Of a DNA stretch of 64,000 bases, positions 2,158-61,286 are shown piece after piece. Location: assembly GCF_030013595.1 (NCBI RefSeq), contig NZ_CP122768.1. One strand, 5' to 3'. Numbering within the stretch: the first letter of the stretch is position 1; each line of letters starts with the position of its first letter. Under the pieces are notes generated by a model that was given only the letters and a program-made list of their open reading frames with translations, was not told the origin of the DNA and did not search any database. The position numbers and the translations under genes were made by a program. This stretch comes from Escherichia coli. Its GTDB lineage: Bacteria; Pseudomonadota; Gammaproteobacteria; Enterobacterales; Enterobacteriaceae.

Positions 2158-2565
2158 CTATTTGCTCATCATCTTGCGCACCAACTGCATAAACAGCTCC
2201 TTCTCTTCTGCACTCAAACGCCCCAAAAATTCCTCATCCACACTGTCACCAATGGGGATCGCCGCAGCAAGTACCTTTTCTCCTTCGGCAGTCAGCCAGA
2301 CAAAGCGACGCCGCTTGTCAGCGGCGTCATGTTCACGTCTGACTAAGCCACGATTTTCCATTCTTGCCAACATTTCTGCCAGCGTTGCTTTGGTGCTGAC
2401 TGCTGCTTCTATCAGTGCCACCTGTTCGATACCAGGCTTATCAGCAATGGCGCGCATCACCGCGTACTGTGGTTTGGTGAGGTCAGGTAACTCGTGCTGC
2501 CAGCGAGCCGTGTGCTGCTGAAAAAGCTGTCGTAACTGATGGAACGCTTTATTTCGTAACGCCAT
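2158..2565 (-). CDS. MarR-family winged-helix transcriptional regulator, divergent from the decarboxylase operon
   Basis: Translation MALRNKAFHQLRQLF...DKRRRFVWLTAEGEKV has a MarR-type wHTH; start chosen at ATG 2565 because of GGAG Shine-Dalgarno 6 nt upstream; the track start at 2598 lacks one. Confidence 0.8.
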   Translation of the reverse strand: MALRNKAFHQLRQLFQQHTARWQHELPDLTKPQYAVMRAIADKPGIEQVALIEAAVSTKATLAEMLARMENRGLVRREHDAADKRRRFVWLTAEGEKVLAAAIPIGDSVDEEFLGRLSAEEKELFMQLVRKMMSK

Positions 2566-2680
2566 GTAAACTCCGGGCAAACTATCTGCCGCTATCATAG
2601 CGGTTTTTCAGTGACGAAGAAGATGTTGTTACTTTTCAGTGCTTGCCGCGATGAAAACAGAGGCGTATTTTAATAATGAC

Positions 2681-2694
2681 GTTCGTATACGAAC
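2681..2694. promoter_or_regulatory. Perfect 14-bp palindrome gttcgtatacgaac, candidate operator for the adjacent MarR-type regulator
   Basis: Exact inverted repeat 18 bp upstream of the ATG at 2712, inside the divergent promoter region. Confidence 0.45.
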
Positions 2695-2711
2695 AATTAA
2701 GAGAATAAACA

Positions 2712-3305
2712 ATGAGACTGATCGTCGGGATGACAGGGGCTACCGGTGCGCCTCTTGGGGTGGCATTACTGCAAGCGCTGCGGGAGATGCCGAATGTCGA
2801 GACTCATCTGGTGATGTCGAAGTGGGCGAAAACCACTATTGAACTGGAAACGCCTTACAGCGCTCGCGATGTTGCCGCCCTCGCAGACTTCAACCATAAC
2901 CCGGCGGATCAGGCGGCGACTATCTCTTCCGGCTCCTTTCGTACCGACGGCATGATCGTTATTCCATGCAGTATGAAAACGCTCGCCGGTATCCGCGCTG
3001 GTTACGCCGATGGTCTCGTGGGGCGCGCGGCGGACGTCGTGCTCAAAGAAGGCCGCAAACTGGTGCTGGTGCCGCGTGAAATGCCGCTTAGCACAATCCA
3101 TCTCGAAAATATGCTCGCACTTTCGCGCATGGGCGTGGCGATGGTGCCGCCGATGCCTGCCTTTTATAACCATCCCGAAACGGTAGATGACATTGTCCAC
3201 CACGTGGTAGCCCGCGTGCTGGATCAATTTGGCCTCGAACATCCTCACGCCAGGCGCTGGCAAGGATTGCCGCAGGCCCGGAATTTTTCTCAGGAGAATG
3301 AATAA
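2712..3305 (+). CDS. ecdB: UbiX/Pad1-family flavin prenyltransferase, subunit B of a hydroxyarylic acid (phenolic acid) decarboxylase
   Basis: Translation MRLIVGMTGATGAPLGVALLQAL... typical of UbiX-like proteins; first gene of a B-C-D operon; symbol by analogy to ecdBCD/kpdBCD naming, as recalled. Confidence 0.85.
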   Translation: MRLIVGMTGATGAPLGVALLQALREMPNVETHLVMSKWAKTTIELETPYSARDVAALADFNHNPADQAATISSGSFRTDGMIVIPCSMKTLAGIRAGYADGLVGRAADVVLKEGRKLVLVPREMPLSTIHLENMLALSRMGVAMVPPMPAFYNHPETVDDIVHHVVARVLDQFGLEHPHARRWQGLPQARNFSQENE

Positions 3306-4732
3306 TGGCATTTGATGATTTACGCAGCTTTTTACAGGCGCTTGATGACCACGGCCAGTTACTGAAAATCAGCGAAGAGGTGAACGCGGAACCGGATCTG
3401 GCAGCCGCTGCCAACGCCACCGGACGTATCGGCGATGGTGCACCGGCGCTGTGGTTTGACAATATTCGCGGCTTTATCGATGCCCGCGTGGCAATGAATA
3501 CCATCGGTTCCTGGCAGAACCACGCGATTTCCCTCGGCCTGCCGCCAAACACCCCGGTTAAAAAGCAGATTGATGAGTTTATCCGCCGCTGGGATAACTT
3601 CCCCATTACCCCGGAGCGCCGCGCCAATCCAGCCTGGGCGCAGAACACCGTCGATGGCGACGAGATCAACCTGTTCGATATTCTGCCGCTGTTTCGTTTA
3701 AACGACGGTGATGGCGGTTTCTATCTCGATAAAGCGTGCGTGGTTTCCCGCGATCCGCTCGACCCGGATAACTTCGGCAAGCAGAACGTCGGCATCTACC
3801 GCATGGAAGTGAAGGGCAAACGTAAGCTCGGCCTGCAACCGGTGCCGATGCACGATATCGCTCTGCATCTGCATAAAGCGGAAGAACGCGGTGAAGATCT
3901 GCCGATTGCCATCACCCTGGGTAACGATCCGATCATCACCCTGATGGGCGCCACGCCGCTGAAATACGATCAGTCTGAGTACGAAATGGCGGGCGCGCTG
4001 CGCGAAAGCCCGTACCCGATCGCCACCGCCCCGCTGACCGGTTTTGATGTGCCGTGGGGCTCGGAAGTGATCCTCGAAGGGGTTATCGAAAGTCGTAAAC
4101 GTGAGATTGAAGGGCCGTTCGGTGAGTTTACCGGTCACTACTCCGGCGGGCGTAACATGACCGTGGTGCGTATCGATAAAGTCTCTTACCGTACCAAACC
4201 GATTTTCGAATCGCTCTATCTTGGTATGCCGTGGACCGAAATCGACTACCTGATGGGGCCTGCCACCTGCGTGCCGCTGTATCAGCAACTGAAAGCCGAG
4301 TTCCCGGAAGTGCAGGCGGTAAACGCCATGTACACCCACGGCCTGTTGGCGATTATCTCCACCAAAAAACGCTACGGCGGCTTTGCCCGCGCGGTGGGCC
4401 TGCGTGCAATGACCACGCCGCACGGTCTGGGCTACGTGAAGATGGTGATTATGGTCGATGAAGACGTTGATCCGTTCAACCTGCCGCAGGTGATGTGGGC
4501 GCTCTCCTCGAAAGTGAACCCGGCAGGCGACCTGGTGCAGTTGCCAAATATGTCCGTGCTGGAACTCGACCCTGGCTCAAGCCCGGCGGGGATCACCGAC
4601 AAGCTGATTATCGACGCCACCACGCCTGTCGCCCCGGACAACCGTGGTCACTACAGCCAGCCGGTGGTGGATTTACCGGAAACCAAAGCCTGGGCTGAAA
4701 AACTGACTGCTATGCTGGCCGCACGTAAATAA
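3305..4732 (+). CDS. ecdC: UbiD-family decarboxylase, catalytic subunit C of a hydroxyarylic acid decarboxylase
   Basis: 475-aa ORF with UbiD-like sequence; start overlaps the upstream stop (ATAATGG), indicating translational coupling. Confidence 0.85.
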   Translation: MAFDDLRSFLQALDDHGQLLKISEEVNAEPDLAAAANATGRIGDGAPALWFDNIRGFIDARVAMNTIGSWQNHAISLGLPPNTPVKKQIDEFIRRWDNFPITPERRANPAWAQNTVDGDEINLFDILPLFRLNDGDGGFYLDKACVVSRDPLDPDNFGKQNVGIYRMEVKGKRKLGLQPVPMHDIALHLHKAEERGEDLPIAITLGNDPIITLMGATPLKYDQSEYEMAGALRESPYPIATAPLTGFDVPWGSEVILEGVIESRKREIEGPFGEFTGHYSGGRNMTVVRIDKVSYRTKPIFESLYLGMPWTEIDYLMGPATCVPLYQQLKAEFPEVQAVNAMYTHGLLAIISTKKRYGGFARAVGLRAMTTPHGLGYVKMVIMVDEDVDPFNLPQVMWALSSKVNPAGDLVQLPNMSVLELDPGSSPAGITDKLIIDATTPVAPDNRGHYSQPVVDLPETKAWAEKLTAMLAARK

Positions 4733-4742
4733 GGAGAACAAG

Positions 4743-4979
4743 ATGATTTGTCCACGTTGTGCCGATGAACAGATTGAAGTGATGGCGAAATCGCCGGTGA
4801 AAGATGTCTGGACGGTCTACCAGTGCCAGCATTGCCTTTATACCTGGCGCGATACCGAACCGCTACGCCGCACTAGCCGCGAACATTATCCCGAAGCGTT
4901 CCGCATGACGCAGAAAGATATTGATGACGCGCCGATGGTGCCGAGCATCCCGCCGCTGCTGGCGGAAGGTAAGCGCTAA
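4743..4979 (+). CDS. ecdD: Small subunit D of the hydroxyarylic acid decarboxylase (Cys-rich, 78 aa)
   Basis: MICPRCADEQ...CQHC motif; position and size match the small D subunit of B-C-D operons; AAGGAG Shine-Dalgarno upstream. Confidence 0.75.
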   Translation: MICPRCADEQIEVMAKSPVKDVWTVYQCQHCLYTWRDTEPLRRTSREHYPEAFRMTQKDIDDAPMVPSIPPLLAEGKR

Positions 4980-6470: not shown

Positions 6471-7247
6471 TTAGCGCCAGGCGTCAAACCAGCCAAGCCC
6501 TTCTTCGGTGAGGCCACGAGGTTTATATTCACAACCGATCCAGCCCTGATATCCCACCTCATCGAACAGGCGGAACAGCCACGGATAGTTGATTTCTCCA
6601 TCGTCCGGTTCATGTCGATCAGGTAGTCCGGCAATTTGTACGTGCGCATATTTCCCGGCGTAGTCGCGGATTAAATGCGTCAGGTTGCCATCTACTTTTT
6701 GCGCATGAAAAGTATCTAGTTGAATAAACACGTTATCTCGCGCAACTTCTTCAACAATAGCCAGTGCCTGATACTGGCTGGAGAAGAGATAATGAGGCTT
6801 AACGCCGGGGCTGAGTGCTTCAACTAATATTCGCTTGCCGTGTGGCGCAAAGCGGTCGGCAGCGTAGCGGAGGTTATCGATAAATACTGCCCTGTACCGT
6901 TCAGCATCTTCGCCAGCGGGCACGACGCCTGCCATCACATGGACTTGTTCACAATTGAGCGCCAATGCATATTCCAGTGCCAGGTCGATGTCTGCGTGTG
7001 CTTCGTGCTCACGTCCGGGAAGGGCGGATAATCCCCATTCCCCCGCATTAATATCTCCGGGAGCGGTATTGAACAGCGCCAGTGTCAGATGGTTTTGCTC
7101 CAGTTGCTTTTGGATTTGCAGGGTGGAGTAGTCATAGGGAAACAGAAATTCCACAGCATCGAACCCGGCTTTTCGCGCTGCGGCGAAGCGTTCAATAAAA
7201 GGCACTTCGGTGAACATCATGGATAAATTAGCTGCAAAACGAGGCAT
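6471..7247 (-). CDS. ygbM: Hydroxypyruvate-isomerase-like TIM-barrel enzyme (2-oxo-tetronate isomerase OtnI)
   Basis: 258-aa [24 protein letters not shown]...; xylose-isomerase-like fold family. Confidence 0.88.
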
Positions 7248-7251
7248 TGCA

Positions 7252-7890
7252 TTAACTCCTTAATTCCGCAATTTCACCTGCGGTCAGATAACGGATCGGG
7301 CGATCACCGAGAATAAAAATCAGCTTTGCCGTTTCCTCCAGCTCTTCCATATTGTTGGCGGCTTCTTGCAGGCTTTCACCGCAAACCACTGGGCCATGAT
7401 TTGCCAGTAAAAAAGCCTGATTGTCTGCTGCCAGTTCCGCCAGATCCTGTGCGATGCGTTTATCGCCCGGTCGGTAATAAGGCACCAGCGGGATATTTCC
7501 CATCCGCATCACCACGTATGGTGTGAACGGACGAATAACGTTGCTGCTGTCCAGCCCTTGCAGGCAGGAAAGCGCCGTCGACCATGTGCTGTGCAAATGC
7601 ACCACCGCTTTACAGCGCGGATTGTTGCGATACAGCGCCAGATGAAAGAGCACCTCTTTCGAGGGTTTGTCACCACTTAACCATTCGCCATCCGCGGCGA
7701 CTTTGGAAAGCCGCTGCGGATCGAGATTGCCCAGGCATGAACCTGTCGGTGTCGCCAGTAAATTCCCGTCAGGTAAAAGCAGCGACAGATTGCCAGCCGA
7801 ACCGGTTGCATAGCCGCGCTGAAAGAATGAACTGGCAATCCGCGTCATCTCCTCTCGCAAAGACTGCTCTACTTTTGCGAAATCGCTCAT
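7252..7890 (-). CDS. ygbL: Class II aldolase/adducin-family enzyme (3-oxo-tetronate 4-phosphate decarboxylase OtnC)
   Basis: 212-aa ORF; immediately upstream of ygbM in the same operon. Confidence 0.88.
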
Positions 7891-9149
7891 GATAAAAACT
7901 CTCTTTGGGCTCGTGAAAAAAAGGCGTCATCACCGAAGTTGCCAGATTTAAGGGCGAGTGAGACAGGCTTATCCAGTGCGTTTACCCACGGCACGCCGGG
8001 GGAAATGGTTGGGCCAATATGAAACCCTTTTATTCCCAGGCTCTGTGTGACTACGCCGGAGGTCTCACCGCCTGCGACAATAAAGCGTGTTACGCCTTCC
8101 GCGGCTAACCGCGTCGCTAGTTGAGAAAACAGTGTTTCTACTGCCTGACTGGCTTTTTGTGCACCGTATTGCTGTTGAATTGCTGCCAATGCGTCAGTGC
8201 TGGCGGTGGCAAAAACCAGTGGAGCAAGTACACTTTCCTGGCCCAGAACCCACTCTGCCAGTTCGTGTGCATAAGCGGCCAGAGTTTCAATTGAGAGGCA
8301 GCGTGCCACATCAACTTCACGGGCTGGTGCAATTTGACGGTAATGTGCTACCTGGCGGTTGGTCATTTGAGAGCATGAACCGGAGAGCACTACGCCGCGC
8401 CCAGCGAGCGGATGCCCTGCTTTGCGAGCCTGGTTACCGTTTTCTTGCGCCCACTGCCGGGCAAGGCCAATCGCCAGACCAGAACCGCCCGTTACCAGTG
8501 GGGCATCGCGCAAGGCTTCTCCCTGAATTTCCAGATGGTGTTCGGTCAGCGCATCAAGCACCGCGTAGCGGTAGCCCTCTTGCTGTAAGCGAGCCAGCTC
8601 TTGACGAACGGCATCCACACCTTGTTCGAAAACATGTGCCGAAACGACGCCGCAGCGCCCTGTGGATTGCGCTTCAACCAGACGGGGAAGATAGCTGTCG
8701 GTCATGGGATTTACCGGGTGATGGCGCATCCCGGATTCGGCCAGCAGTTGATTCATTACGAACAAATACCCCTGATAAACCGTACGTCCGTTGACCGGCA
8801 GGGCCGGAGAGAAGACCGTAAACGGCGTGTCGAGAGCATCCATTAATGCATCGGTAACCGGGCCGATATTACCTTTCGCCGTACTGTCGAAAGTAGAGCA
8901 GTATTTGAAATAGATCTGTTTGCAACCTTGCTGTTGCAACCAGCTCAGAGCCGCCAGCGATTGCTGTGTGGCTTCAACCACCGGACAGGAACGCGTTTTC
9001 AGGCTGATCACCAGTGCGTCGATTGCTTCCGGCATTTTACTTGTTGGAACACCGTTAATTTGTACCGTTGGTAGACCGTTTTCCACCAGAAAACTGGCGA
9101 TATCCGTCGCGCCGGTAAAATCATCGGCGATAACGCCAATCTTGATCAT
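7887..9149 (-). CDS. ygbK: Four-carbon acid sugar kinase (3-oxo-tetronate kinase OtnK)
   Basis: 420-aa ORF beginning MIKIGVIADDFTGATD (nucleotide-binding N-terminus typical of the family); 4-bp overlap with ygbL. Confidence 0.85.
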   Translation of the reverse strand: MIKIGVIADDFTGATDIASFLVENGLPTVQINGVPTSKMPEAIDALVISLKTRSCPVVEATQQSLAALSWLQQQGCKQIYFKYCSTFDSTAKGNIGPVTDALMDALDTPFTVFSPALPVNGRTVYQGYLFVMNQLLAESGMRHHPVNPMTDSYLPRLVEAQSTGRCGVVSAHVFEQGVDAVRQELARLQQEGYRYAVLDALTEHHLEIQGEALRDAPLVTGGSGLAIGLARQWAQENGNQARKAGHPLAGRGVVLSGSCSQMTNRQVAHYRQIAPAREVDVARCLSIETLAAYAHELAEWVLGQESVLAPLVFATASTDALAAIQQQYGAQKASQAVETLFSQLATRLAAEGVTRFIVAGGETSGVVTQSLGIKGFHIGPTISPGVPWVNALDKPVSLALKSGNFGDDAFFSRAQREFLS

Positions 9150-30336: not shown

Positions 30337-30648
30337 ATGCACATCATTTCTAAAGCGCCATTTGAAGAGTGTGCGCGCAAATATCCTAACGACGCTCTGG
30401 CTCTACACTCATTGTATCGGGTTATTAAGGAAACGGATTTTTCTACACCAGAAGAAATGCGAACGGCGTTTCCCAACCTCGACAATTTTAGATATCGCAA
30501 CAAATGGTACGTTCTGGATGTCGGCGGGAACAATCTTAGGGTTATTGCCTACATAAACTTTGTTAATAAGCGGTTCTTTGTGAAGCACATAACGAATCAC
30601 GCAGAGTATGACAAACTGACACGTTACTACAGAGAGAACAAAGAATGA
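30337..30648 (+). CDS. HigB-family type II toxin (RelE/ParE-fold mRNA interferase), 103 aa
   Basis: MHIISKAPFEECARKYP...FPNLDNFRYRNKWYVLDVGGNNLRVIAYI... resembles HigB/YgjN-type toxins; toxin gene precedes the antitoxin with a 4-bp ATGA overlap. Confidence 0.8.
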   Translation: MHIISKAPFEECARKYPNDALALHSLYRVIKETDFSTPEEMRTAFPNLDNFRYRNKWYVLDVGGNNLRVIAYINFVNKRFFVKHITNHAEYDKLTRYYRENKE

Positions 30649-31064
30649 CTGCTAATGCTGCACGCGCTGTTAAAGCAACAAGAGAACTGGTCAATGCAGT
30701 CCCCTTTCTGGGAGGTAGTGACTCAGAAGATGATTATCGTGAAGCACTGGAACTGGTCGAATATTTGATTGAAGAAGATGACACCAATCCACTTATCGAC
30801 TTTCTGGCGAGCCGCATTGCAGAGTATGAAAGCAACAACGAAAAGTTTGCAGAGTTCGACAAAGCCGTTGCTGCAATGCCGGTTGGCGTGGCGTTACTTC
30901 GTACGCTGATTGATCAACATAATCTGACCTACGCGGATTTGAAGAACGAAATCGGCTCTAAATCCCTGGTCAGTCAGATTTTGTCTGGGCAACGATCCCT
31001 GACGATATCCCACATTAAGGCACTTTCAGCCCGATTTGGTGTTAAGCCGGAATGGTTTCTTTGA
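30645..31064 (+). CDS. HigA-family antitoxin (XRE-type HTH at the C-terminus), 139 aa
   Basis: ...GSKSLVSQILSGQRSLTISHIKALSARFGV... HTH segment; translationally coupled to the upstream toxin. Confidence 0.8.
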   Translation: MTANAARAVKATRELVNAVPFLGGSDSEDDYREALELVEYLIEEDDTNPLIDFLASRIAEYESNNEKFAEFDKAVAAMPVGVALLRTLIDQHNLTYADLKNEIGSKSLVSQILSGQRSLTISHIKALSARFGVKPEWFL

Positions 31065-49647: not shown

Positions 49648-50788
<1,141 letters not shown>

Positions 50789-50808
50789 TCGTCTTGTTTG
50801 ATACACAA

Positions 50809-50836
50809 GGGTCGCATCTGCGGCCCTTTTGCTTTT
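50809..50836 (+). terminator. Intrinsic terminator downstream of recA
   Basis: Stem gggtcgc/gcggccc with 4-nt loop followed by ttttgctttttt. Confidence 0.65.
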
Positions 50837-50856
50837 TTAAGTTGTAAGGATATGCC

Positions 50857-51357
50857 ATGACAGAATCAACGTCCCGTCGCCCGGCATATGCTCGCCTGTT
50901 GGATCGTGCGGTACGCATTCTGGCGGTGCGCGATCACAGTGAGCAAGAACTGCGACGTAAACTCGCGGCACCGATTATGGGCAAAAATGGCCCGGAAGAG
51001 ATTGATGCCACGGCAGAAGATTACGAGCGCGTTATTGCCTGGTGCCATGAACATGGCTATCTCGATGACAGCCGATTTGTGGCGCGCTTTATCGCCAGCC
51101 GTAGCCGCAAAGGTTATGGACCTGCGCGTATTCGTCAGGAACTGAATCAGAAAGGTATTTCCCGCGAAGCGACAGAAAAAGCGATGCGTGAATGTGACAT
51201 CGACTGGTGCGCACTGGCGCGCGATCAGGCGACGCGAAAATATGGCGAACCTTTGCCAACTGTCTTTTCAGAAAAAGTTAAGATCCAGCGTTTTCTGCTC
51301 TATCGTGGCTATCTGATGGAAGATATCCAGGATATTTGGCGAAATTTTGCCGACTGA
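50857..51357 (+). CDS. recX: RecA regulator RecX
   Basis: 166-aa [39 protein letters not shown]... Confidence 0.93.
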
Positions 51358-51485
51358 ACGCATACGGGATTTTACTTCCCAGTCAAGAAAACTTATCTTA
51401 TTCCCACTTTTCAGTTACCAGCCGGGCGGTTAACAACACGCAACGGCTGGTAGCGATATTTCGTTAGCTTGATTTCAGGATAATT

Positions 51486-54116
51486 ATGAGCAAGAGCACC
51501 GCTGAGATCCGTCAGGCGTTTCTCGACTTTTTCCATAGTAAGGGACATCAGGTAGTTGCCAGCAGCTCCCTGGTACCCCATAACGACCCAACTTTGTTGT
51601 TTACCAACGCCGGGATGAACCAGTTCAAGGATGTGTTCCTTGGGCTCGACAAGCGTAATTATTCCCGCGCTACCACTTCCCAACGCTGCGTGCGTGCGGG
51701 TGGTAAACACAACGACCTGGAAAACGTTGGTTACACCGCGCGTCATCATACCTTCTTCGAAATGCTGGGCAACTTCAGCTTCGGCGACTATTTCAAACAC
51801 GATGCCATTCAGTTTGCATGGGAACTGCTGACCAGCGAAAAATGGTTTGCCCTGCCGAAAGAGCGTCTGTGGGTTACCGTCTATGAAAGCGACGACGAAG
51901 CCTACGAAATCTGGGAAAAAGAAGTAGGGATCCCGCGCGAACGTATTATTCGCATCGGCGATAACAAAGGTGCGCCATACGCATCTGACAACTTCTGGCA
52001 GATGGGTGACACTGGTCCGTGCGGCCCGTGCACCGAAATCTTCTACGATCACGGCGACCACATTTGGGGTGGCCCTCCGGGAAGTCCGGAAGAAGACGGC
52101 GACCGCTACATTGAGATCTGGAACATCGTCTTCATGCAGTTCAACCGCCAGGCAGATGGCACGATGGAACCGCTGCCGAAGCCGTCTGTAGATACCGGTA
52201 TGGGTCTGGAGCGTATTGCTGCGGTGCTGCAACACGTTAACTCTAACTATGACATCGACCTGTTCCGTACGCTGATCCAGGCGGTAGCGAAAGTCACTGG
52301 CGCGACCGATTTGAGCAACAAATCGCTGCGCGTAATCGCTGACCACATTCGTTCTTGTGCGTTCCTGATCGCGGATGGCGTAATGCCGTCCAATGAAAAC
52401 CGTGGTTATGTACTGCGTCGTATCATTCGTCGCGCAGTGCGTCACGGTAATATGCTCGGCGCGAAAGAAACCTTCTTCTACAAACTGGTTGGTCCGCTGA
52501 TCGACGTTATGGGCTCTGCGGGTGAAGACCTGAAACGCCAGCAGGCGCAGGTTGAGCAGGTGCTGAAGACTGAAGAAGAGCAGTTTGCCCGTACTCTGGA
52601 GCGCGGTCTGGCGCTGCTGGATGAAGAGCTGGCAAAACTTTCTGGTGATACGCTGGATGGTGAAACGGCTTTCCGTCTGTACGACACCTATGGCTTCCCG
52701 GTTGACCTGACGGCTGATGTTTGTCGTGAGCGCAACATCAAAGTTGACGAAGCTGGATTTGAAGCAGCAATGGAAGAGCAGCGTCGTCGTGCGCGCGAAG
52801 CCAGCGGCTTTGGTGCCGATTACAACGCAATGATCCGTGTTGACAGTGCATCTGAATTTAAAGGCTATGACCATCTGGAACTAAACGGCAAAGTGACCGC
52901 GCTGTTTGTTGATGGTAAATCGGTTGATGTCATCAATGCAGGCCAGGAAGCTGTGGTCGTGCTGGATCAAACGCCATTCTATGCGGAATCCGGCGGTCAG
53001 GTTGGTGATAAAGGCGAACTGAAAGGCGCTAACTTCTCCTTTGCGGTGGAAGATACGCAGAAATACGGCCAGGCGATTGGTCACATCGGTAAACTTGCTG
53101 CGGGTTCTCTGAAAGTGGGCGACGCGGTGCAGGCTGATGTTGATGAAGCTCGTCGCGCCCGTATTCGTCTGAATCACTCCGCAACGCACCTGATGCACGC
53201 GGCGCTGCGCCAGGCTCTGGGTACTCATGTATCGCAGAAAGGTTCACTGGTTAACGACAAAGTGCTGCGCTTCGACTTCTCACACAACGAAGCGATGAAG
53301 CCAGAAGAGATTCGTGCGGTCGAAGACCTGGTGAACGCACAGATTCGCCGTAACTTGCCGATTGAAACCAACATCATGGATCTCGAAGCGGCGAAAGCGA
53401 AAGGTGCGATGGCACTGTTCGGCGAGAAGTATGATGAGCGCGTACGCGTGCTGAGCATGGGCGATTTCTCCACCGAGCTGTGTGGCGGTACTCACGCCAG
53501 TCGCACCGGTGATATTGGTCTGTTCCGCATCATCTCTGAATCGGGTACTGCTGCAGGCGTTCGTCGTATCGAAGCGGTAACCGGAGAAGGCGCTATCGCC
53601 ACCGTTCATGCAGACAGCGATCGCTTAAACGAAGTCGCGCATCTGCTGAAAGGCGATAGCAATAATCTGGCTGATAAAGTGCGCTCAGTACTGGAACGTA
53701 CGCGTCAGCTGGAAAAAGAGTTACAACAGCTTAAAGAACAAGCTGCCGCACAGGAGAGCGCAAATCTTTCCAGTAAGGCAATTGATGTTAATGGTGTTAA
53801 GCTGTTGGTTAGCGAGCTTAGCGGTGTTGAGCCGAAAATGTTGCGTACCATGGTTGACGATTTAAAAAATCAGCTGGGGTCGACAATTATCGTGCTGGCA
53901 ACGGTAGTCGAAGGTAAGGTTTCTCTGATTGCAGGCGTATCTAAGGACGTCACAGATCGTGTGAAAGCAGGGGAACTGATTGGTATGGTCGCTCAGCAGG
54001 TGGGCGGCAAGGGTGGTGGACGTCCTGACATGGCGCAAGCCGGTGGTACGGATGCTGCGGCCTTACCTGCAGCGTTAGCCAGTGTGAAAGGCTGGGTCAG
54101 CGCGAAATTGCAATAA
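51486..54116 (+). CDS. alaS: Alanine--tRNA ligase
   Basis: 876-aa [34 protein letters not shown]... with class II aaRS motifs. Confidence 0.97.
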
Positions 54117-54350
54117 TATAAGCGTCAGGCAATGCCGTGGACTCGCTTCACGGCATTCGCATTAACGCTATCGACAACGATAAAGTCAGGTTGAAGTTGT
54201 GTATATCGGCTAAACTTAGGTTTAACAGAATGTAATGCCATGACTGCTTACATGTAATGTGTTTGTCATTGCTTACTTTTTGGCGTTATATGATGGATAA
54301 TGCCGGGATACAGAGAGACCCGACTCTTTTAATCTTTCAAGGAGCAAAGA

Positions 54351-54536
54351 ATGCTGATTCTGACTCGTCGAGTTGGTGAGACTCTCATGATTGGGGATGA
54401 GGTCACCGTGACAGTTTTAGGGGTAAAGGGCAACCAGGTACGTATTGGCGTAAATGCCCCGAAGGAAGTTTCTGTTCACCGTGAAGAGATCTACCAGCGT
54501 ATCCAGGCTGAAAAATCCCAGCAGTCCAGTTACTAA
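54351..54536 (+). CDS. csrA: Carbon storage regulator CsrA
   Basis: 61-aa [51 protein letters not shown]. Confidence 0.97.
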
Positions 54537-54761
54537 TCTTTCCGCGTCTCATCTTTATCGGTGAGACGCACCCTCAAAATTTCTTCTTCACTCCATTGTC
54601 TTTTCGCTTTACTCCCGTTCATTCAACTTAAGTTTCCATTTTTTTGCATTACTGCTATCTGACAGACCTCCGTTTTTTTGTTGATAAAACACTCTTTTTG
54701 ACGTTTTTACAGACTAATTGAGCGTGAAGTGTGCAAACGATAAAAGTGTGGGAAAAATTGT

Positions 54762-54789
54762 TTGACTTATAAGTCTCAGAAAGTAATAT
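54762..54789 (+). promoter_or_regulatory. Candidate promoter of the tRNA-Ser/tRNA-Arg cluster (-35 ttgact, 16-bp spacer, -10 taatat, GC-rich discriminator)
   Basis: Hexamers followed by gtgcgcc, typical of stringently controlled stable-RNA promoters. Confidence 0.45.
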
Positions 54790-54851
54790 GTGCGCCACGC
54801 AGCGACGATGAGCGATAAACAAGTTCTTCGAAGCACTCGTAAGAGGCGTGT

Positions 54852-54944
54852 GGTGAGGTGGCCGAGAGGCTGAAGGCGCTCCCCTGCTAAGGGAGTATGC
54901 GGTCAAAAGCTGCATCCGGGGTTCGAATCCCCGCCTCACCGCCA
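54852..54944 (+). tRNA. serV: tRNA-Ser (anticodon GCU), 93 nt including CCA
   Basis: Cloverleaf with long variable arm; anticodon loop cuGCUaa; ends ...ccgcctcaccgcca. Confidence 0.93.
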
Positions 54945-54947
54945 TTT

Positions 54948-55024
54948 GCATCCGTAGCTCAGCTGGATAGAGTACTCGGCTACGAACCGAGCGGTCGGAG
55001 GTTCGAATCCTCCCGGATGCACCA
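54948..55024 (+). tRNA. tRNA-Arg (anticodon ACG), 77 nt, copy 1
   Basis: gcatccgtagctcagctggatagagtactcggctACGaaccgagcggtcggaggttcgaatcctcccggatgcacca; 3 nt after tRNA-Ser. Confidence 0.93.
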
Positions 55025-55139
55025 TATTCTACGTACTTTCAGCGATGAAGGTATAGAAGAGGTGGCGGTAATAACCGCAGGCACCAGGGAGGATAACGTT
55101 GCTTTAGCAACGGCCCGAAGGGCGAGCCGCAAGGCGAGT

Positions 55140-55158
55140 AATCCTCCCGGATGCACCA
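55140..55158 (+). other. 19-nt 3'-terminal fragment of tRNA-Arg (aatcctcccggatgcacca) in the long spacer
   Basis: Exact match to the last 19 nt of the intact copies; upstream sequence diverges. Confidence 0.7.
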
Positions 55159-55222
55159 TCTCTTACTTGATACGGCTTTAGTAGCGGTATCAAAAAATCT
55201 GCAGTAAAGTAAGTTTCCCGAT

Positions 55223-55299
55223 GCATCCGTAGCTCAGCTGGATAGAGTACTCGGCTACGAACCGAGCGGTCGGAGGTTCGAATCCTCCCGGATGCACCA
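55223..55299 (+). tRNA. tRNA-Arg (anticodon ACG), 77 nt, copy 2
   Basis: Identical to copy 1. Confidence 0.93.
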
Positions 55300-55401
55300 T
55301 ATTCTCCGTAATCATCAGTGATGATGGTTAAGATGGATTTTCTTATTTGATATGGCTTTAGTAGCGGTATCAATATCAGCAGTAAAATAAGTTTTCCCGA
55401 T

Positions 55402-55478
55402 GCATCCGTAGCTCAGCTGGATAGAGTACTCGGCTACGAACCGAGCGGTCGGAGGTTCGAATCCTCCCGGATGCACCA
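55402..55478 (+). tRNA. tRNA-Arg (anticodon ACG), 77 nt, copy 3
   Basis: Identical to copy 1. Confidence 0.93.
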
Positions 55479-55688
55479 TATTCTCCGTAATCTTCAGCAA
55501 TGAAGGTATCGAAGAGGTAGCGGTTCTAACCGCAGGCACCATCTTCTCCAAAAAATTTCCTTCAAAAATATCTCATTTCTAAATAACTACTTTATCCATT
55601 TCCTGAATTTTCTTCTCCTTCGCCATCAGCGACAAAATCAAGCAATTACGCTAAAGTAGCGTCATATTTTTCGACTTGCGAGAAGACC

Positions 55689-56255
55689 ATGTACGAGCGT
55701 TATGCAGGTTTAATTTTTGATATGGATGGCACAATCCTGGATACGGAGCCTACGCACCGTAAAGCGTGGCGCGAAGTATTAGGGCACTACGGTCTTCAGT
55801 ACGATGTTCAGGCAATGATTGCGCTTAATGGCTCGCCCACCTGGCGTATTGCTCAGGCGATTATTGAGCTGAATCAGGCCGATCTCGACCCGCATGCGTT
55901 AGCGCGTGAAAAAACAGAAGCAGTAAGAAGTATGCTGCTGGATAGTGTCGAGCCGCTTCCTCTTGTTGAAGTGGTGAAAAGCTGGCATGGTCGTCGCCCA
56001 ATGGCTGTAGGAACGGGGAGTGAAAGCGCCATCGCTGAGGCATTGCTGGCGCACCTGGGATTACGCCGTTATTTTGACGCCGTCGTCGCTGCTGATCACG
56101 TCAAACACCATAAACCCGCGCCAGACACATTTTTGTTGTGCGCGCAGCGTATGGGCGTGCAACCGACACAGTGTGTGGTCTTTGAAGATGCCGATTTCGG
56201 TATTCAGGCGGCCCGTGCAGCAGGCATGGACGCTGTGGATGTTCGCTTGCTGTGA
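55689..56255 (+). CDS. yqaB: HAD-superfamily sugar phosphatase YqaB
   Basis: 188-aa ORF with DMDGT HAD motif I (…LIFDMDGTILDTEP…). Confidence 0.92.
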   Translation: MYERYAGLIFDMDGTILDTEPTHRKAWREVLGHYGLQYDVQAMIALNGSPTWRIAQAIIELNQADLDPHALAREKTEAVRSMLLDSVEPLPLVEVVKSWHGRRPMAVGTGSESAIAEALLAHLGLRRYFDAVVAADHVKHHKPAPDTFLLCAQRMGVQPTQCVVFEDADFGIQAARAAGMDAVDVRLL

Positions 56256-56665
56256 GTGAAGCGTTATCGCTTTTCTCGTTGTTTGCCAGTAGTTTTCTCA
56301 GCGCTACACTATTACCCGGCAACTCCGAAGTCGTGCTGGTGGCAATGTTGCTTTCCGGGATCAGTCATCCCTGGGTTTTAGTTTTAACAGCAACAATGGG
56401 TAATAGCCTTGGAGGGTTAACTAACGTTATCCTTGGGCGTTTCTTTCCATTGCGTAAAACATCGCGCTGGCAAGAGAAAGCTACCGGCTGGCTGAAACGC
56501 TATGGTGCAGTCACGCTATTATTAAGCTGGATGCCCGTGGTTGGCGATTTACTGTGTCTGTTAGCGGGATGGATGCGCATCTCCTGGGGGCCGGTAATCT
56601 TTTTTTGTGCCTTGGTAAAGCGTTACGCTATGTTGCAGTTGCAGCAGCGACCGTTCAGGGCATGA
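56252..56665 (+). CDS. yqaA: Small DedA/YqaA-family inner membrane protein; C-terminus altered by an apparent -1 frameshift in a T7 tract
   Basis: GTG start overlapping the yqaB stop; after ...WGPVIFF the frame ends CALVKRYAMLQLQQRPFRA*; one extra T in the run at 56600-56606 would give a hydrophobic LCLGKALRYVAVAAATVQGMMWWH* tail and a 142-aa product. Confidence 0.8.
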   Translation: MSEALSLFSLFASSFLSATLLPGNSEVVLVAMLLSGISHPWVLVLTATMGNSLGGLTNVILGRFFPLRKTSRWQEKATGWLKRYGAVTLLLSWMPVVGDLLCLLAGWMRISWGPVIFFCALVKRYAMLQLQQRPFRA

Positions 56666-56724
56666 TGTGGTGGCACTAATTGTAGGCCTGCACATATGGT
56701 CACCATTACAGTTATGCTAATTAA

Positions 56725-58308
<1,584 letters not shown>

Positions 58309-58316
58309 CAGAAAAG

Positions 58317-58389
58317 AAAAAGGCCACTCGTGAGTGGCCAAAATTTCATCTCTGAATTCAGGGATGATGATAACAAATGCGCGTCTTTC
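58317..58389 (-). ncRNA. micA: MicA (SraD) Hfq-dependent small RNA, ~73 nt
   Basis: Reverse strand reads GAAAGACGCGCATTTGTTATCATCATCCCTGAATTCAGAGATGAAATTTTGGCCACTCACGAGTGGCCTTTTT, ending in a terminator hairpin (58322-58339) plus U-run; sits between gshA and luxS. Confidence 0.9.
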
Positions 58390-58395
58390 ATATAC

Positions 58396-58422
58396 TCAGA
58401 CTCGCCTGGGAAGAAAGAGTTC
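58396..58422 (-). promoter_or_regulatory. Sigma-E type promoter of micA (-35 GAACTC, 16-bp spacer, -10 TCTGA)
   Basis: Reverse strand reads gaactc-N16-tctga-gtatat then the MicA 5' end at 58389. Confidence 0.7.
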
Positions 58423-58457
58423 AGAAAATTTTTAAAAAAATTACCGGAGGTGGCTAA

Positions 58458-58973
58458 ATGCCGTTGTTAGATAGCTTCACAGTCGATCATACCCGGATGG
58501 AAGCGCCTGCAGTTCGGGTGGCGAAAACAATGAACACCCCGCATGGCGACGCAATCACCGTGTTCGATCTGCGCTTCTGCGTGCCGAACAAAGAAGTGAT
58601 GCCAGAAAGAGGGATCCATACCCTGGAGCACCTGTTTGCTGGTTTTATGCGTAACCATCTTAACGGTAATGGCGTAGAGATTATCGATATCTCGCCAATG
58701 GGCTGCCGCACCGGTTTTTATATGAGTCTGATTGGTACGCCAGATGAGCAGCGTGTCGCTGATGCCTGGAAAGCGGCAATGGAGGACGTGCTGAAAGTGC
58801 AGGATCAGAATCAGATCCCGGAACTGAACGTCTACCAGTGTGGCACTTACCAGATGCACTCGTTGCAGGAAGCGCAGGATATTGCGCGTAGCATTCTGGA
58901 ACGTGACGTACGCATCAACAGCAACGAAGAGCTGGCGCTACCGAAAGAGAAGTTGCAGGAACTGCACATCTAG
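58458..58973 (+). CDS. luxS: S-ribosylhomocysteine lyase LuxS (AI-2 synthase)
   Basis: 171-aa [43 protein letters not shown]... with HxxEH metal motif. Confidence 0.96.
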
Positions 58974-59009
58974 TCAGTAAACTATCTTCACAATTAATTG
59001 AATAAATAT

Positions 59010-59033
59010 CCTCCGGCATAGCCGGAGGTTTTT
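59010..59033 (+). repeat. Subterminal hairpin at the tnpA-distal end of the IS200-like element (cctccggcatagccggagg + ttttt)
   Basis: 19-nt palindrome; 14/19 identity and same architecture as the hairpin at 59681-59699. Confidence 0.6.
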
Positions 59034-59109
59034 CAAATGCGCCTATAAGGCTCTCTTACCAGCCGCGCCCTAACAGGCGCACACGATCTGACATTTGCAT
59101 CCAACTTCG

Positions 59110-59568
59110 TTACTTACGGCCCGTAAACGGGCTGCCCGGATAGGGAATCGATAACTGATCTCCCATTTTATCCTCTTCAAGCTGGTGCTTTATGTAATCC
59201 TGTATCTTCGCCGTGTTCTTACCCACTGTATCGACGTAGTACCCTCTGCACCAGAACTCCCTGTTCCTGTATTTGAATTTCAAATCACCAAACTGCTCGT
59301 AAAGCATCAGACTGCTTTTCCCTTTCAGATATCCCATAAACCCGGATACGCTCATTTTGGGCGGGATCTCCACAAGCATATGGATATGATCTGCACAGCA
59401 TTCAGCTTCCAGAATCCGTACGCTTTTCCACTCACACAGCTTTCTCAAAATACTGCCTATTGCTCTACGCTTCTCTCTGTAGAACACCTGTCTTCGGTAT
59501 TTTGGCGCAAAAACTATGTGATATTTACAGTTCCATCGGGTGTGCGCTAAGCTCTTTTCGTTCCCCAT
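59110..59568 (-). CDS. tnpA: IS200-type transposase TnpA (HuH single-strand transposase), 152 aa
   Basis: MGNEKSLAHTRWNCKYHIVFAPKYRR...CCADHIHMLVEIPPK...YVDTVGKN (HuH and catalytic Tyr region); the track ORF is extended 17 codons. Confidence 0.92.
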   Translation of the reverse strand: MGNEKSLAHTRWNCKYHIVFAPKYRRQVFYREKRRAIGSILRKLCEWKSVRILEAECCADHIHMLVEIPPKMSVSGFMGYLKGKSSLMLYEQFGDLKFKYRNREFWCRGYYVDTVGKNTAKIQDYIKHQLEEDKMGDQLSIPYPGSPFTGRK

Positions 59569-59573
59569 TGGGA

Positions 59574-59643
59574 CCCCCTTTTGATTTCTTGTTTGACACT
59601 TGCAGTTGCCAGACCGCAAGGTGTTTTAACAAATCAAAAGGGG
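59574..59643 (-). promoter_or_regulatory. Long imperfect stem-loop in the tnpA leader that pairs with the Shine-Dalgarno sequence
   Basis: cccccttttgattt (59574-59587) pairs with aaatcaaaagggg (59631-59643); the tnpA Shine-Dalgarno lies in the 3' arm, as described for IS200. Confidence 0.6.
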
Positions 59644-59680
59644 TTTTAATAACTGGCTCAAAGCTGAAAGCTTTCCGGAA

Positions 59681-59704
59681 CCCCCAGCCTAGCTGGGGGT
59701 TTTC
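59681..59704 (+). repeat. Subterminal hairpin at the tnpA-proximal end of the IS200-like element (cccccagcctagctggggg + tttt)
   Basis: 19-nt palindrome matching the other end hairpin in architecture. Confidence 0.6.
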
Positions 59705-59711
59705 TGTGCAC

Positions 59712-59739
59712 AAAAAAGCCAGTTCAAATGAACTGGCTT
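59712..59739 (-). terminator. Intrinsic terminator of emrB
   Basis: Reverse strand: stem aagccagttc/gaactggctt followed by a U-run, 8 nt after the emrB stop. Confidence 0.7.
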
Positions 59740-59747
59740 AGTTGTAC

Positions 59748-61286
59748 TTAGTGCGCACCACCTCCGCCGCCACCTGCGCCAAATGGCGGTTTAGCAAACC
59801 ACACCAGCCCCAGCAGGACGAGGAATATCCCGGCTGACATCCAGAAGATCTCATTGGCGGAAATTATCAGCCCCTGATTGGTGATCTGCTGGGCAATCCA
59901 GCCTGATGCCTGCTGTTGCGTCATTCCCAGTCCTTCCAGTTGACTGTACATCGCCTGGGCATTCGGGTTGAACGGGTTTACCGACTCGGTTAACTGTGCG
60001 TGGTGCATCGACTCGCGGTTGGTCCACATGGTGGTGGTGATGGATGTGCCGATAGACCCCGCCAGCGTTCGCGTAAAGTTAGAGAGGCTCGATGCCGCCG
60101 CCAGTCGTTCCGGTGGCAAACCAGACAGCGTAATGGTGGTCAGCGGCATAAAGAAGCAGGCCACCGCAAAACCCTGGATAAACTGCGGCCAGGCCGACGC
60201 GCCAAAATCCATACCTGGTTCAAAGGTATAGGCACGCCAGTAGAAGCAGACGGCATACATAATAAAGCTGAAGGTTACCAGCCGCCGCATATCCAGTTTA
60301 TGCGCGAAGCGGCCGATAATCGGCGACAGGATCACCGGAATAATCCCTACCGGCGCAGAGGCCAGACCTGCCCACGTTGCCGTGTAACCGTAGACCTCCT
60401 GCAACAACTGCGGCAGCAGAACAATCGCGCCGAAGTAGAGCATATACGCGAGGCTGATACACAAGCAGCCGATGGTGAAGTTGCGCGACTTAAACAACGA
60501 CAGATCGACTATCGGGTTATCGTCGGTCAGCTCCCAGACAATCAGGAAGCAGATAGCCACCACCGCCACCACGGTGAGGATGATAATTTCCTGTGATGAG
60601 AACCAGTCCAGCTCTTTACCGCGGTCGAGCATAATCTGCAGGCTGCCGATACCAATAACCAGCAGTGCCAGCCCCACGGCATCAATCCGCCGCCGTTCGG
60701 TGCGGGTTTCACGTCCGCGCAGAGTTTGCAGTGTCATCAACACCACCGCCACGCCAATCGGCACGTTGATGAAGAATATCCAGCCCCAGTGGTAATTATC
60801 GCTGATATAACCGCCGAGGATCGGGCCGCAAATTGGCGCGACAATCACCGTCATCGACCACAACGCCAGTGCGATCGAGCGTTTGGCTGGTGGGTAGTTA
60901 TTCAGCAATAGACTTTGCGAAAGCGGAATTAACGGCCCGGCGACAATCCCCTGAATCACGCGGAAGAAGATCAGCATATTCAGGCTGCTGGAGACACCAC
61001 ACGCCCACGACGCAATAGCAAAGGCGATGGTGGACCAGAGGAACAGTTTCACTTCCCCGACGCGCTTTGCCAGCCAGCCGGTAAGCGGGATCGAGATGGC
61101 ATTCGCCACCCCGAAAGAAGTGATTACCCACGTTCCCTGGCTGAGCGATGAGCCCAGATTCCCGGCGATAGTGGGGATCGCCACGTTAGCAATGGTGGAG
61201 TCCAGCACCTGCATGAATGTCGCCAGTGACAGCGCAATCGTCATAATGACCAGTTGCGCGCCTTCCAGCGGTTTTTGCTGTTGCAT
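59748..61286 (-). CDS. emrB: Multidrug efflux MFS transporter EmrB
   Basis: Starts MQQQKPLEGAQLVIMTIALSLATFMQ...; 14-TMS MFS; Gly-rich C-terminus GAGGGGGGAH. Confidence 0.95.
   Translation of the reverse strand: MQQQKPLEGAQLVIMTIALSLATFMQVLDSTIANVAIPTIAGNLGSSLSQGTWVITSFGVANAISIPLTGWLAKRVGEVKLFLWSTIAFAIASWACGVSSSLNMLIFFRVIQGIVAGPLIPLSQSLLLNNYPPAKRSIALALWSMTVIVAPICGPILGGYISDNYHWGWIFFINVPIGVAVVLMTLQTLRGRETRTERRRIDAVGLALLVIGIGSLQIMLDRGKELDWFSSQEIIILTVVAVVAICFLIVWELTDDNPIVDLSLFKSRNFTIGCLCISLAYMLYFGAIVLLPQLLQEVYGYTATWAGLASAPVGIIPVILSPIIGRFAHKLDMRRLVTFSFIMYAVCFYWRAYTFEPGMDFGASAWPQFIQGFAVACFFMPLTTITLSGLPPERLAAASSLSNFTRTLAGSIGTSITTTMWTNRESMHHAQLTESVNPFNPNAQAMYSQLEGLGMTQQQASGWIAQQITNQGLIISANEIFWMSAGIFLVLLGLVWFAKPPFGAGGGGGGAH

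Follow-up and report, generated by a model that had tools for sequence, protein, structure and literature searches.

The stretch of Escherichia coli DNA analysed here, referred to as the window, is 64,000 nucleotides of contig NZ_CP122768.1 (assembly GCF_030013595.1). In this window, the convergent genes luxS and emrB are separated by a gap of 774 bp, which contains a single transposase gene, tnpA, in the same orientation as emrB, together with several predicted hairpins and RNA elements. The features of this region are listed below with the evidence for each of them, LE and RE denoting the left and the right end of the inserted element.

58458..58973, plus strand: luxS, convergent with emrB (open reading frame list; RefSeq annotation of a near-identical locus).
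59001..59711, minus strand: IS200C insertion sequence of 711 bp, with LE at 59711 and RE at 59001 (empty-site alignment).
59010..59033, plus strand: RE hairpin CCTCCGGC-ATA-GCCGGAGG followed by TTTTT (terminator scan of both strands; fold).
59110..59568, minus strand: tnpA, encoding a Y1 HUH transposase of 152 aa, start codon at 59566-59568 (open reading frame list; NCBIfam).
59560..59649, plus strand: expected position of art200, an antisense RNA of ~90 nt (transferred through the element numbering from PMC4513863).
59574..59643, minus strand: predicted Shine-Dalgarno-sequestering stem-loop of the tnpA leader (fold; STnc490 structure alignment).
59578..59701, minus strand: Rfam RF01405 (STnc490), matched in full (model positions 1-124 of 124; 146.4 bits; gathering score 56).
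59679..59701, both strands: LE hairpin AACCCCCAGC-TAG-GCTGGGGGTT, nt 11-33 of the element (fold; first helix of the STnc490 match).
59712..59739, minus strand: native intrinsic terminator of emrB, with the hairpin at 59716-59739 and T6 at 59712-59717 (empty sites; terminator scan; fold).
59748..61286, minus strand: emrB, 1539 nt, co-oriented with tnpA, stop codon at 59748-59750 (open reading frame list; RefSeq annotation).

On the other side of luxS, the gene for the small RNA MicA is found at 58318-58389 on the minus strand, between gshA and luxS as in K-12 (Rfam 83.9 bits; gathering score 41).

Boundaries of the insertion

The luxS-emrB gap is only 63 bp in K-12 MG1655, and the same 63-bp gap is present in E. 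coli strain AR_0128 and in most E. coli, so that the gap of the window exceeds it by 711 bp. When positions 58900-59800 were compared by megablast with 5,426 complete E. coli genomes, three classes of match were obtained: the whole luxS-IS-emrB arrangement in a few records, the central ~720 bases alone at other loci in many records, and the two flanks alone, joined together, in thousands of records. Alignment of the window with the empty site of AR_0128 (...CACAATTAATTG/AAAAAAGCCAGTTC..., the stroke marking the junction) sets the inserted block at 59001-59711. The initial annotation of the window had proposed an insertion of ~707 bp at 59001-59707, with a K-12 gap of roughly 60-70 bp. The insertion and the short gap both stand, as K-12 lacks the ~700 bp altogether, but the size and the right-hand boundary are to be corrected, since the block is 711 bp long and ends 4 bp further, at 59711.

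The empty site reads TTG directly followed by AAAAAAGCC, and the filled site reads TTG, the 711 bp and then AAAAAAGCC, without any repeat except for an ambiguous AA. Because the block begins with AA (59001-59002), which could equally belong to the flank, its ends are uncertain by 2 bp, and this ambiguity permits the shifted blocks 59002-59712 or 59003-59713. From this single site, an element of 709 bp accompanied by a 2-bp AA duplication is formally possible. Insertion without duplication fits better, since it agrees both with the mechanism of the IS200/IS605 family and with another copy of the element located between gnd and ugd.

Identity and structure of the element

Copies annotated in RefSeq as 'IS200/IS605-like element IS200C family transposase' share 99.9% identity with the insert across its full 711 bp, and by this identity the insert is assigned to IS200C, which belongs to the IS200 group within the IS200/IS605 family. 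In the gnd-ugd copy of strain F5446, the block running from AATAAAT to GTGCAC recurs with one base different (hand count), and the flanks of this copy are unrelated to those of the window, save for an A-run and then a GC-rich hairpin on the right. The element, of which the window contains one copy, is ~0.7 kb in size, and tnpA is its sole open reading frame with a family match, tnpB being absent. It has no terminal inverted repeats, as its ends on the tnpA strand, GTGCACAGAA... and ...GGATATTTATT, show no inverted-repeat relation; hairpins lie subterminally, 10 nt inside the left end and 9 nt inside the right one. Two 19-nt hairpins had initially been noticed at 59010-59028 and 59681-59699, and both are found exactly there, the left one being CCCCCAGC-CTA-GCTGGGGG. 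They are identical to each other at 14 of 19 positions (hand count), and they are parts of the element rather than of the native sequence, being absent from the empty sites and present in the gnd-ugd copy.

The product of tnpA matches the NCBIfam equivalog NF033573 (transpos_IS200) with 147.7 bits against a cut-off of 55 (E = 1.9e-43), and also the solved Y1 transposases 2ec2 and 2f4f from Sulfolobus, 2a6m from IS608 and 2xm3 from ISDra2 (E = 4e-23 to 1e-14). Its HUH motif is H61-I-H63 and its catalytic tyrosine is Y125, the residue altered in Y125F, a catalytically dead mutant of IS200 TnpA (PMC4513863). An IS200-like element with a gene for a 152-aa HUH (Y1) transposase, as read from the letters of the window in the initial annotation, is thus corroborated by the NCBIfam match, the motif residues and the identity to IS200C copies. 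TnpA differs from WP_000526135.1 at one residue, E137D, which is located in the C-terminal tail beyond Y125. The base concerned, 59158, is A in the window copy and C in all compared copies, and is therefore a private SNP. A decayed relic is ruled out by the intact reading frame, the catalytic residues and the presence of both ends. Intact does not mean active, however, because IS200 is notorious for its inactivity under laboratory conditions (PMC4513863). By analogy with the mechanism of the IS200/IS605 family, the window copy would transpose as single-stranded DNA, in a peel-and-paste manner.

Apart from the private conservative substitution E137D, nothing of substance distinguishes the window copy from IS200C. 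IS200C of E. coli and IS200 of Salmonella enterica likewise have a single gene for a 152-aa Y1 HUH transposase, an RE hairpin and no terminal inverted repeats, and their LE terminator hairpin, Shine-Dalgarno stem-loop and art200/STnc490 region are found at matching positions here; 707 bp is quoted for the Salmonella element (PMC4513863), as against 711 bp from the empty-site comparison of the window copy. IS1541 of Yersinia pestis and Y. pseudotuberculosis has the exact 23-mer LE hairpin and the RE hairpin in common with the window copy and also sits directly after sequences with a hairpin and a T-run, but it differs in its host, in its far higher copy number with tandem copies in Y. pestis, and in its first LE bases, GTGCCCAGAA in place of GTGCACAGAA. 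IS608 of Helicobacter pylori and ISDra2 encode TnpA proteins homologous to that of the window (E = 4e-19 for 2a6m and 2e-16 for 2xm3), and they resemble the window copy in having subterminal hairpins and in being inserted 3' of a short LE target without duplication. Unlike IS200, they carry tnpB, and they recognise TTAC and TTGAT, whereas IS200 seems to target a T-rich pentamer (TTTTT, TTATT, TTGTT) after a hairpin, presumably read by guide-target pairing. Terminators or palindromes are also targeted by group IIC introns and by the REP-targeting elements ISPpu9 and IS1397, through unrelated enzymes (retrohoming, and DDE or other transposases).

The IS200C copy at luxS-emrB is already known and annotated in public genomes, and is ordinary in this respect. 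A search of the literature on IS200 together with luxS and emrB returned nothing specific to the luxS-emrB insertion.

The left end and control of tnpA

The LE hairpin is predicted to fold with -18.7 kcal/mol on the minus strand and -20.7 kcal/mol on the plus strand. The corresponding hairpin at nt 12-34 of IS200 acts as a Rho-independent terminator in both directions and protects tnpA against transcription arriving from outside, and in Salmonella it stops about 85% of impinging transcripts (PMC4513863, PMC5435999). The same hairpin would also be the subterminal structure to which TnpA binds at this end. The leader of tnpA is predicted to form a long stem in which the Shine-Dalgarno sequence AAGGGGGU is paired, with a folding energy of -40.4 kcal/mol versus -26.3 +/- 3.5 kcal/mol for shuffled sequences (z = -4.1; 0 of 200 shuffles folded as well), and this is in keeping with the burial of the ribosome-binding site in a long stem-loop that had been noticed at the outset. 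The Shine-Dalgarno stem-loop of Salmonella IS200 has been published at nt 69-138 (PMC4513863). When the window copy is numbered from 59711, its hairpin occupies nt 11-33 and its Shine-Dalgarno stem nt 69-137, within 1 nt of the published positions.

The STnc490 match lies on the tnpA-sense strand, while art200 is antisense to tnpA's 5'UTR and initial three codons (PMC4513863). For this reason, the match is taken as evidence for an IS200 left end only, and not for which RNA is made from it. IS200 of Salmonella is controlled by the LE terminator, the Shine-Dalgarno stem, art200 and Hfq (PMC4513863, PMC5435999). If these mechanisms are carried over to the window copy through the conservation of sequence, and if the predicted RNAs are expressed, synthesis of TnpA would be repressed by the Shine-Dalgarno-sequestering stem-loop together with the antisense RNA. 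Two other Rfam candidates in the region, Ysr202 at 58955-59033 (29 bits versus a gathering score of 315) and ncr1175 at 59676-59739 (26 bits versus 60), were rejected as generic resemblance to terminator hairpins.

Insertion behind the emrB terminator

On the emrB strand, the stop codon is followed by 8 nt, by the hairpin AAGCCAGTTC-ATTT-GAACTGGCTT overlapping T6, and then by GTGCAC, the left end of the IS. In empty sites, the convergent luxS and emrB have no other hairpin between them, and the sequence after this one on the luxS strand is AGTTGTAC, a poor U tract. IS200C is likely to have been inserted by single-strand 'peel-and-paste' immediately 3' of the T6 of the emrB terminator, without target duplication. 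Such an event would join the left end to this terminator, orient tnpA as emrB and leave the terminator unchanged, and the LE hairpin would add a second block, effective in both directions, against the entry of outside transcription into tnpA. The initial annotation regarded the native emrB terminator as displaced. For emrB this does not hold, the terminator being intact 8 nt past the stop codon, but for luxS it does, the hairpin having been moved 711 bp away; the displacement concerns luxS only, because the IS entered directly after the T-run. In the filled site (59706-59747, minus strand), the LE bases GUGC and two U residues of the terminator are predicted to pair with GUACAA upstream of the hairpin (-24 kcal/mol, z = -7.3); this extension of the stem could slightly alter emrB termination, or could be due to chance.

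On the side of luxS, seven of the 8 pairs of the RE hairpin (59010-59028) are G-C, its loop is 3 nt long, and T5 follows directly. The hairpin passes the terminator pattern scan on the luxS strand, where its fold has -16.5 kcal/mol (z = -4.9), compared with -15.9 kcal/mol (z = -3.9) on the other strand. As initially annotated, the hairpin begins 37 nt past the last base of the luxS stop codon, and the T-run ends 60 nt past the stop. On the minus strand it is followed by ATATTTATT, the last 9 nt of the element, and there it is presumed to act both as the right-end binding hairpin for TnpA and as the terminator of tnpA. Judged by its pattern, the RE hairpin with T5 looks like an intrinsic terminator for luxS as well. 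Transcription of luxS, which formerly would have ended at the shared hairpin ~33 nt past the stop, would now meet the RE hairpin and T5 at 37 nt, so that the length of the luxS 3'UTR would be nearly preserved. Thus luxS has probably regained a 3' end at almost its former distance from the stop, and for luxS and emrB alike the insertion is probably close to neutral.

Alternatively, the RE hairpin might be a transposase-binding structure only, in which case luxS transcription would read into the IS antisense to tnpA and would stop at the LE hairpin, at the native hairpin or by the action of Rho. Conservation of the RE hairpin in IS1541 is what would be expected of a transposition signal regardless of transcription, and two further hairpins are available downstream on the plus strand, since readthrough past RE would meet the LE hairpin with TTTT and then the native hairpin; moreover, the luxS end at the RE hairpin is itself a pattern-based prediction. 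However, a G-C-rich stem of 8 pairs with a 3-nt loop and T5, which folds with ~-16 kcal/mol and passes the scan, is more canonical as a terminator than is the native hairpin on the luxS side with its tail AGTTGTAC, and such readthrough is considered the less probable course of luxS transcription. The locus as a whole is best explained by an intact IS200C that has been inserted after the emrB terminator, has likely replaced the luxS terminator, is near-neutral to the two genes and has its TnpA held down, an explanation to which a probability of about 0.93 is assigned.

Target preference among bacteria

The exact 23-nt LE hairpin was searched for in one genome per species (GTDB), and at least 120 loci were found. 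Those listed are from Y. pestis, Vibrio, Brenneria, Dickeya, Edwardsiella and Pluralibacter, and also from metagenome-assembled genomes of Bacillota, Mailhella, Desulfovibrio, Oxalobacter and others. The loci from metagenome-assembled genomes (L004-L064) belong to Bacillota, Peptococcaceae, Mailhella/Desulfovibrio, Oxalobacter, Elusimicrobiaceae and Saccharibacteria and are often situated at contig ends, which points to a very wide horizontal spread of the LE hairpin, or to contamination in some bins.

The 50-nt flanks upstream of LE, 119 of which are unique among the matches listed, E. coli included, were examined for a hairpin with a T-run, defined as a T-run together with a perfectly paired stem of 5 or more pairs whose end lies within 10 nt. 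Among these 119 unique flanks of the listed matches, 116 have at least four T in the last 6 nt, and the last five bases are T-rich (at least three T) in 118. A hairpin with a T-run precedes LE in 93 of the 119 listed flanks (78%), versus 0.6% of random positions in the same loci, and a hairpin is found beside only 10% of random T-runs in the same loci. The window copy obeys this rule exactly. Terminator-like stem-loops are reportedly present at 8 of 14 insertion sites of IS1541, as Odaert and colleagues are said to have described in 1998. The bias of IS200 towards positions after terminators is already on record and is not new: a 2025-26 survey has found terminator-like sequences to be over-represented immediately upstream of insertion sequences, most strongly for IS200/IS605 (bioRxiv 10.1101/2025.07.22.666184), and an anecdotal case in the literature is IS1541 between pheL and pheA in Yersinia. 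This survey and the pheL-pheA anecdote were all that a literature search returned for an explicit statement that IS200 targets terminators.

At the Y. pestis NCTC5923 loci L069, L070, L072 and L116, copies of IS1541 are arranged in head-to-tail tandems in which LE is joined to the RE hairpin and ATATTTATT of the other copy. The location of IS1541 directly after the right end of another copy suggests that the right end resembles the preferred target, both consisting of a GC-rich hairpin and then a T-rich tail ending in TT. It might be supposed from this that IS200 transposases recognise terminators as structured single-strand targets that mimic their own RE, and that insertion is transcriptionally self-repairing at a terminator shared by convergent genes, because the element has terminator-like hairpins at both ends. 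The excess of hairpins in the listed flanks (78% of 119, compared with 10% of random T-runs), the IS1541 tandems and the luxS-emrB nucleotide that has seemingly been hit twice may support such a mechanism, although the proposal in this full form is speculative and rather unlikely to be correct. Only the mimicry of RE and the idea of self-repair might be new.

Distribution and origin in E. coli

A near-full-length copy of IS200C is present in 2,063 of the 5,426 complete E. coli genomes (38%), at up to 35 places per genome. The luxS-emrB insertion, in identical position and orientation, was found in 89 of the 5,426 by a query with the left junction and in 113 by one with the right junction. The window matches two UK pig isolates, with one of which it is colinear over 49,962 bases at 99.96% identity. 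Other carriers of the luxS-emrB insertion, which include ST80, UPEC, dog and river isolates, show ~2% divergence from the window in their flanks, and their IS differs at 8 of 711 positions (1.1%). The relatives nearest to the window in the flanks (99.2-99.4% identical) have empty sites, and the flanks of the other filled genomes are only ~97.4-98% identical to those of the window.

The luxS-emrB insertion has probably been gained twice, in the lineage of the window and in a B2-type lineage. Identical position and orientation in both lineages, the precise excision that is expected of IS200/IS605 from the mechanism of the family, and a divergence of the IS (8/711, 1.1%) of the same order as that of the flanks (~2%) might instead be accounted for by one ancient insertion that was later lost from most E. 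coli through precise excision. Such a history would require many precise losses. The sites of the closest relatives (99.2-99.4%) are empty while the other filled genomes are more distant (~97.4-98% in the flanks); copies found at different loci of other strains match the IS variant of the window at 99.9% identity, and strict targeting of terminators makes recurrent hits at one nucleotide plausible. A single ancient gain is accordingly judged improbable, and two independent hits are favoured. Still less probable is that the copy is kept as a domesticated source of regulatory RNAs (the small RNA derived from the tnpA 5'UTR, and art200), as has been proposed for IS200 of Salmonella, where the 5' tnpA RNA regulates invF and more than 70 genes (PMC5435999; bioRxiv 10.1101/2024.06.26.600842). 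The RNA region of LE is fully conserved in the window (Rfam 146 bits), and the luxS-emrB copy is the sole IS200 copy in some B2 genomes; both facts would suit domestication, but tnpA and both ends are intact, and only 38% of the complete E. coli genomes have any copy and ~2% the luxS-emrB one, from which it follows that this copy does not serve E. coli as a conserved host function. We know of no E. coli targets of IS200-derived RNAs.

Other variation at and around the locus

The luxS-emrB gap varies among E. coli also in other ways. About 1,005 of 5,423 complete genomes have over 1 kb between the luxS and emrB halves. In the one example that was examined, NZ_OX637964.1 of ST131 (6479-8597 of locus L128, corresponding to the window gap 58979-59747), the gap is occupied by a different insert of ~2.1 kb with two genes on the emrB strand, one for an 'ATP-binding protein' of 370 aa and one for an 'RNA ligase family protein' of 235 aa, and the emrB-proximal terminator differs; PADLOC gave no match for the two genes of this ST131-type insert. 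At least three states of the gap are thus seen: empty, IS200 and a two-gene cassette.

Elsewhere in the window, a tRNA-Ser(gct) gene is followed by three tRNA-Arg(acg) genes at 54852-55478, with spacers of 198 and 102 nt; in ST131 the serV-argV cluster comprises three copies spaced by ~62 nt. Compared with its closest relative, the window has 38 additional nt somewhere within 49,962-58,900, and the differences in length of the tRNA region are probably due to copy or spacer polymorphism of the serV-argV cluster. A tRNA-Arg(tcg) predicted by ARAGORN at 54968-55039 on the minus strand overlaps a plus-strand gene and looks spurious. According to the annotation of the colinear record, a pair of a HigB-family toxin and an HTH antitoxin lies between hycI and ascB (~30337-31064 of the window), and the variable region between rpoS and mutS (~2158-4979) contains a MarR regulator and the genes for hydroxyarylic acid decarboxylase B/C/D.

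Significance of the luxS-emrB copy

Taken alone, the insertion matters little, being a further annotated copy, in a non-coding gap, of an insertion sequence that has long been known. It nevertheless provides a clean lineage marker, being present in ~2% of complete E. coli genomes, and it indicates that the 3'UTR and terminator of luxS vary between strains, which is relevant to comparisons of luxS/AI-2 expression and to the mapping of 3' ends across E. coli. For the IS200 group, the luxS-emrB copy is a tidy example of an element that lands after a terminator and brings its own.
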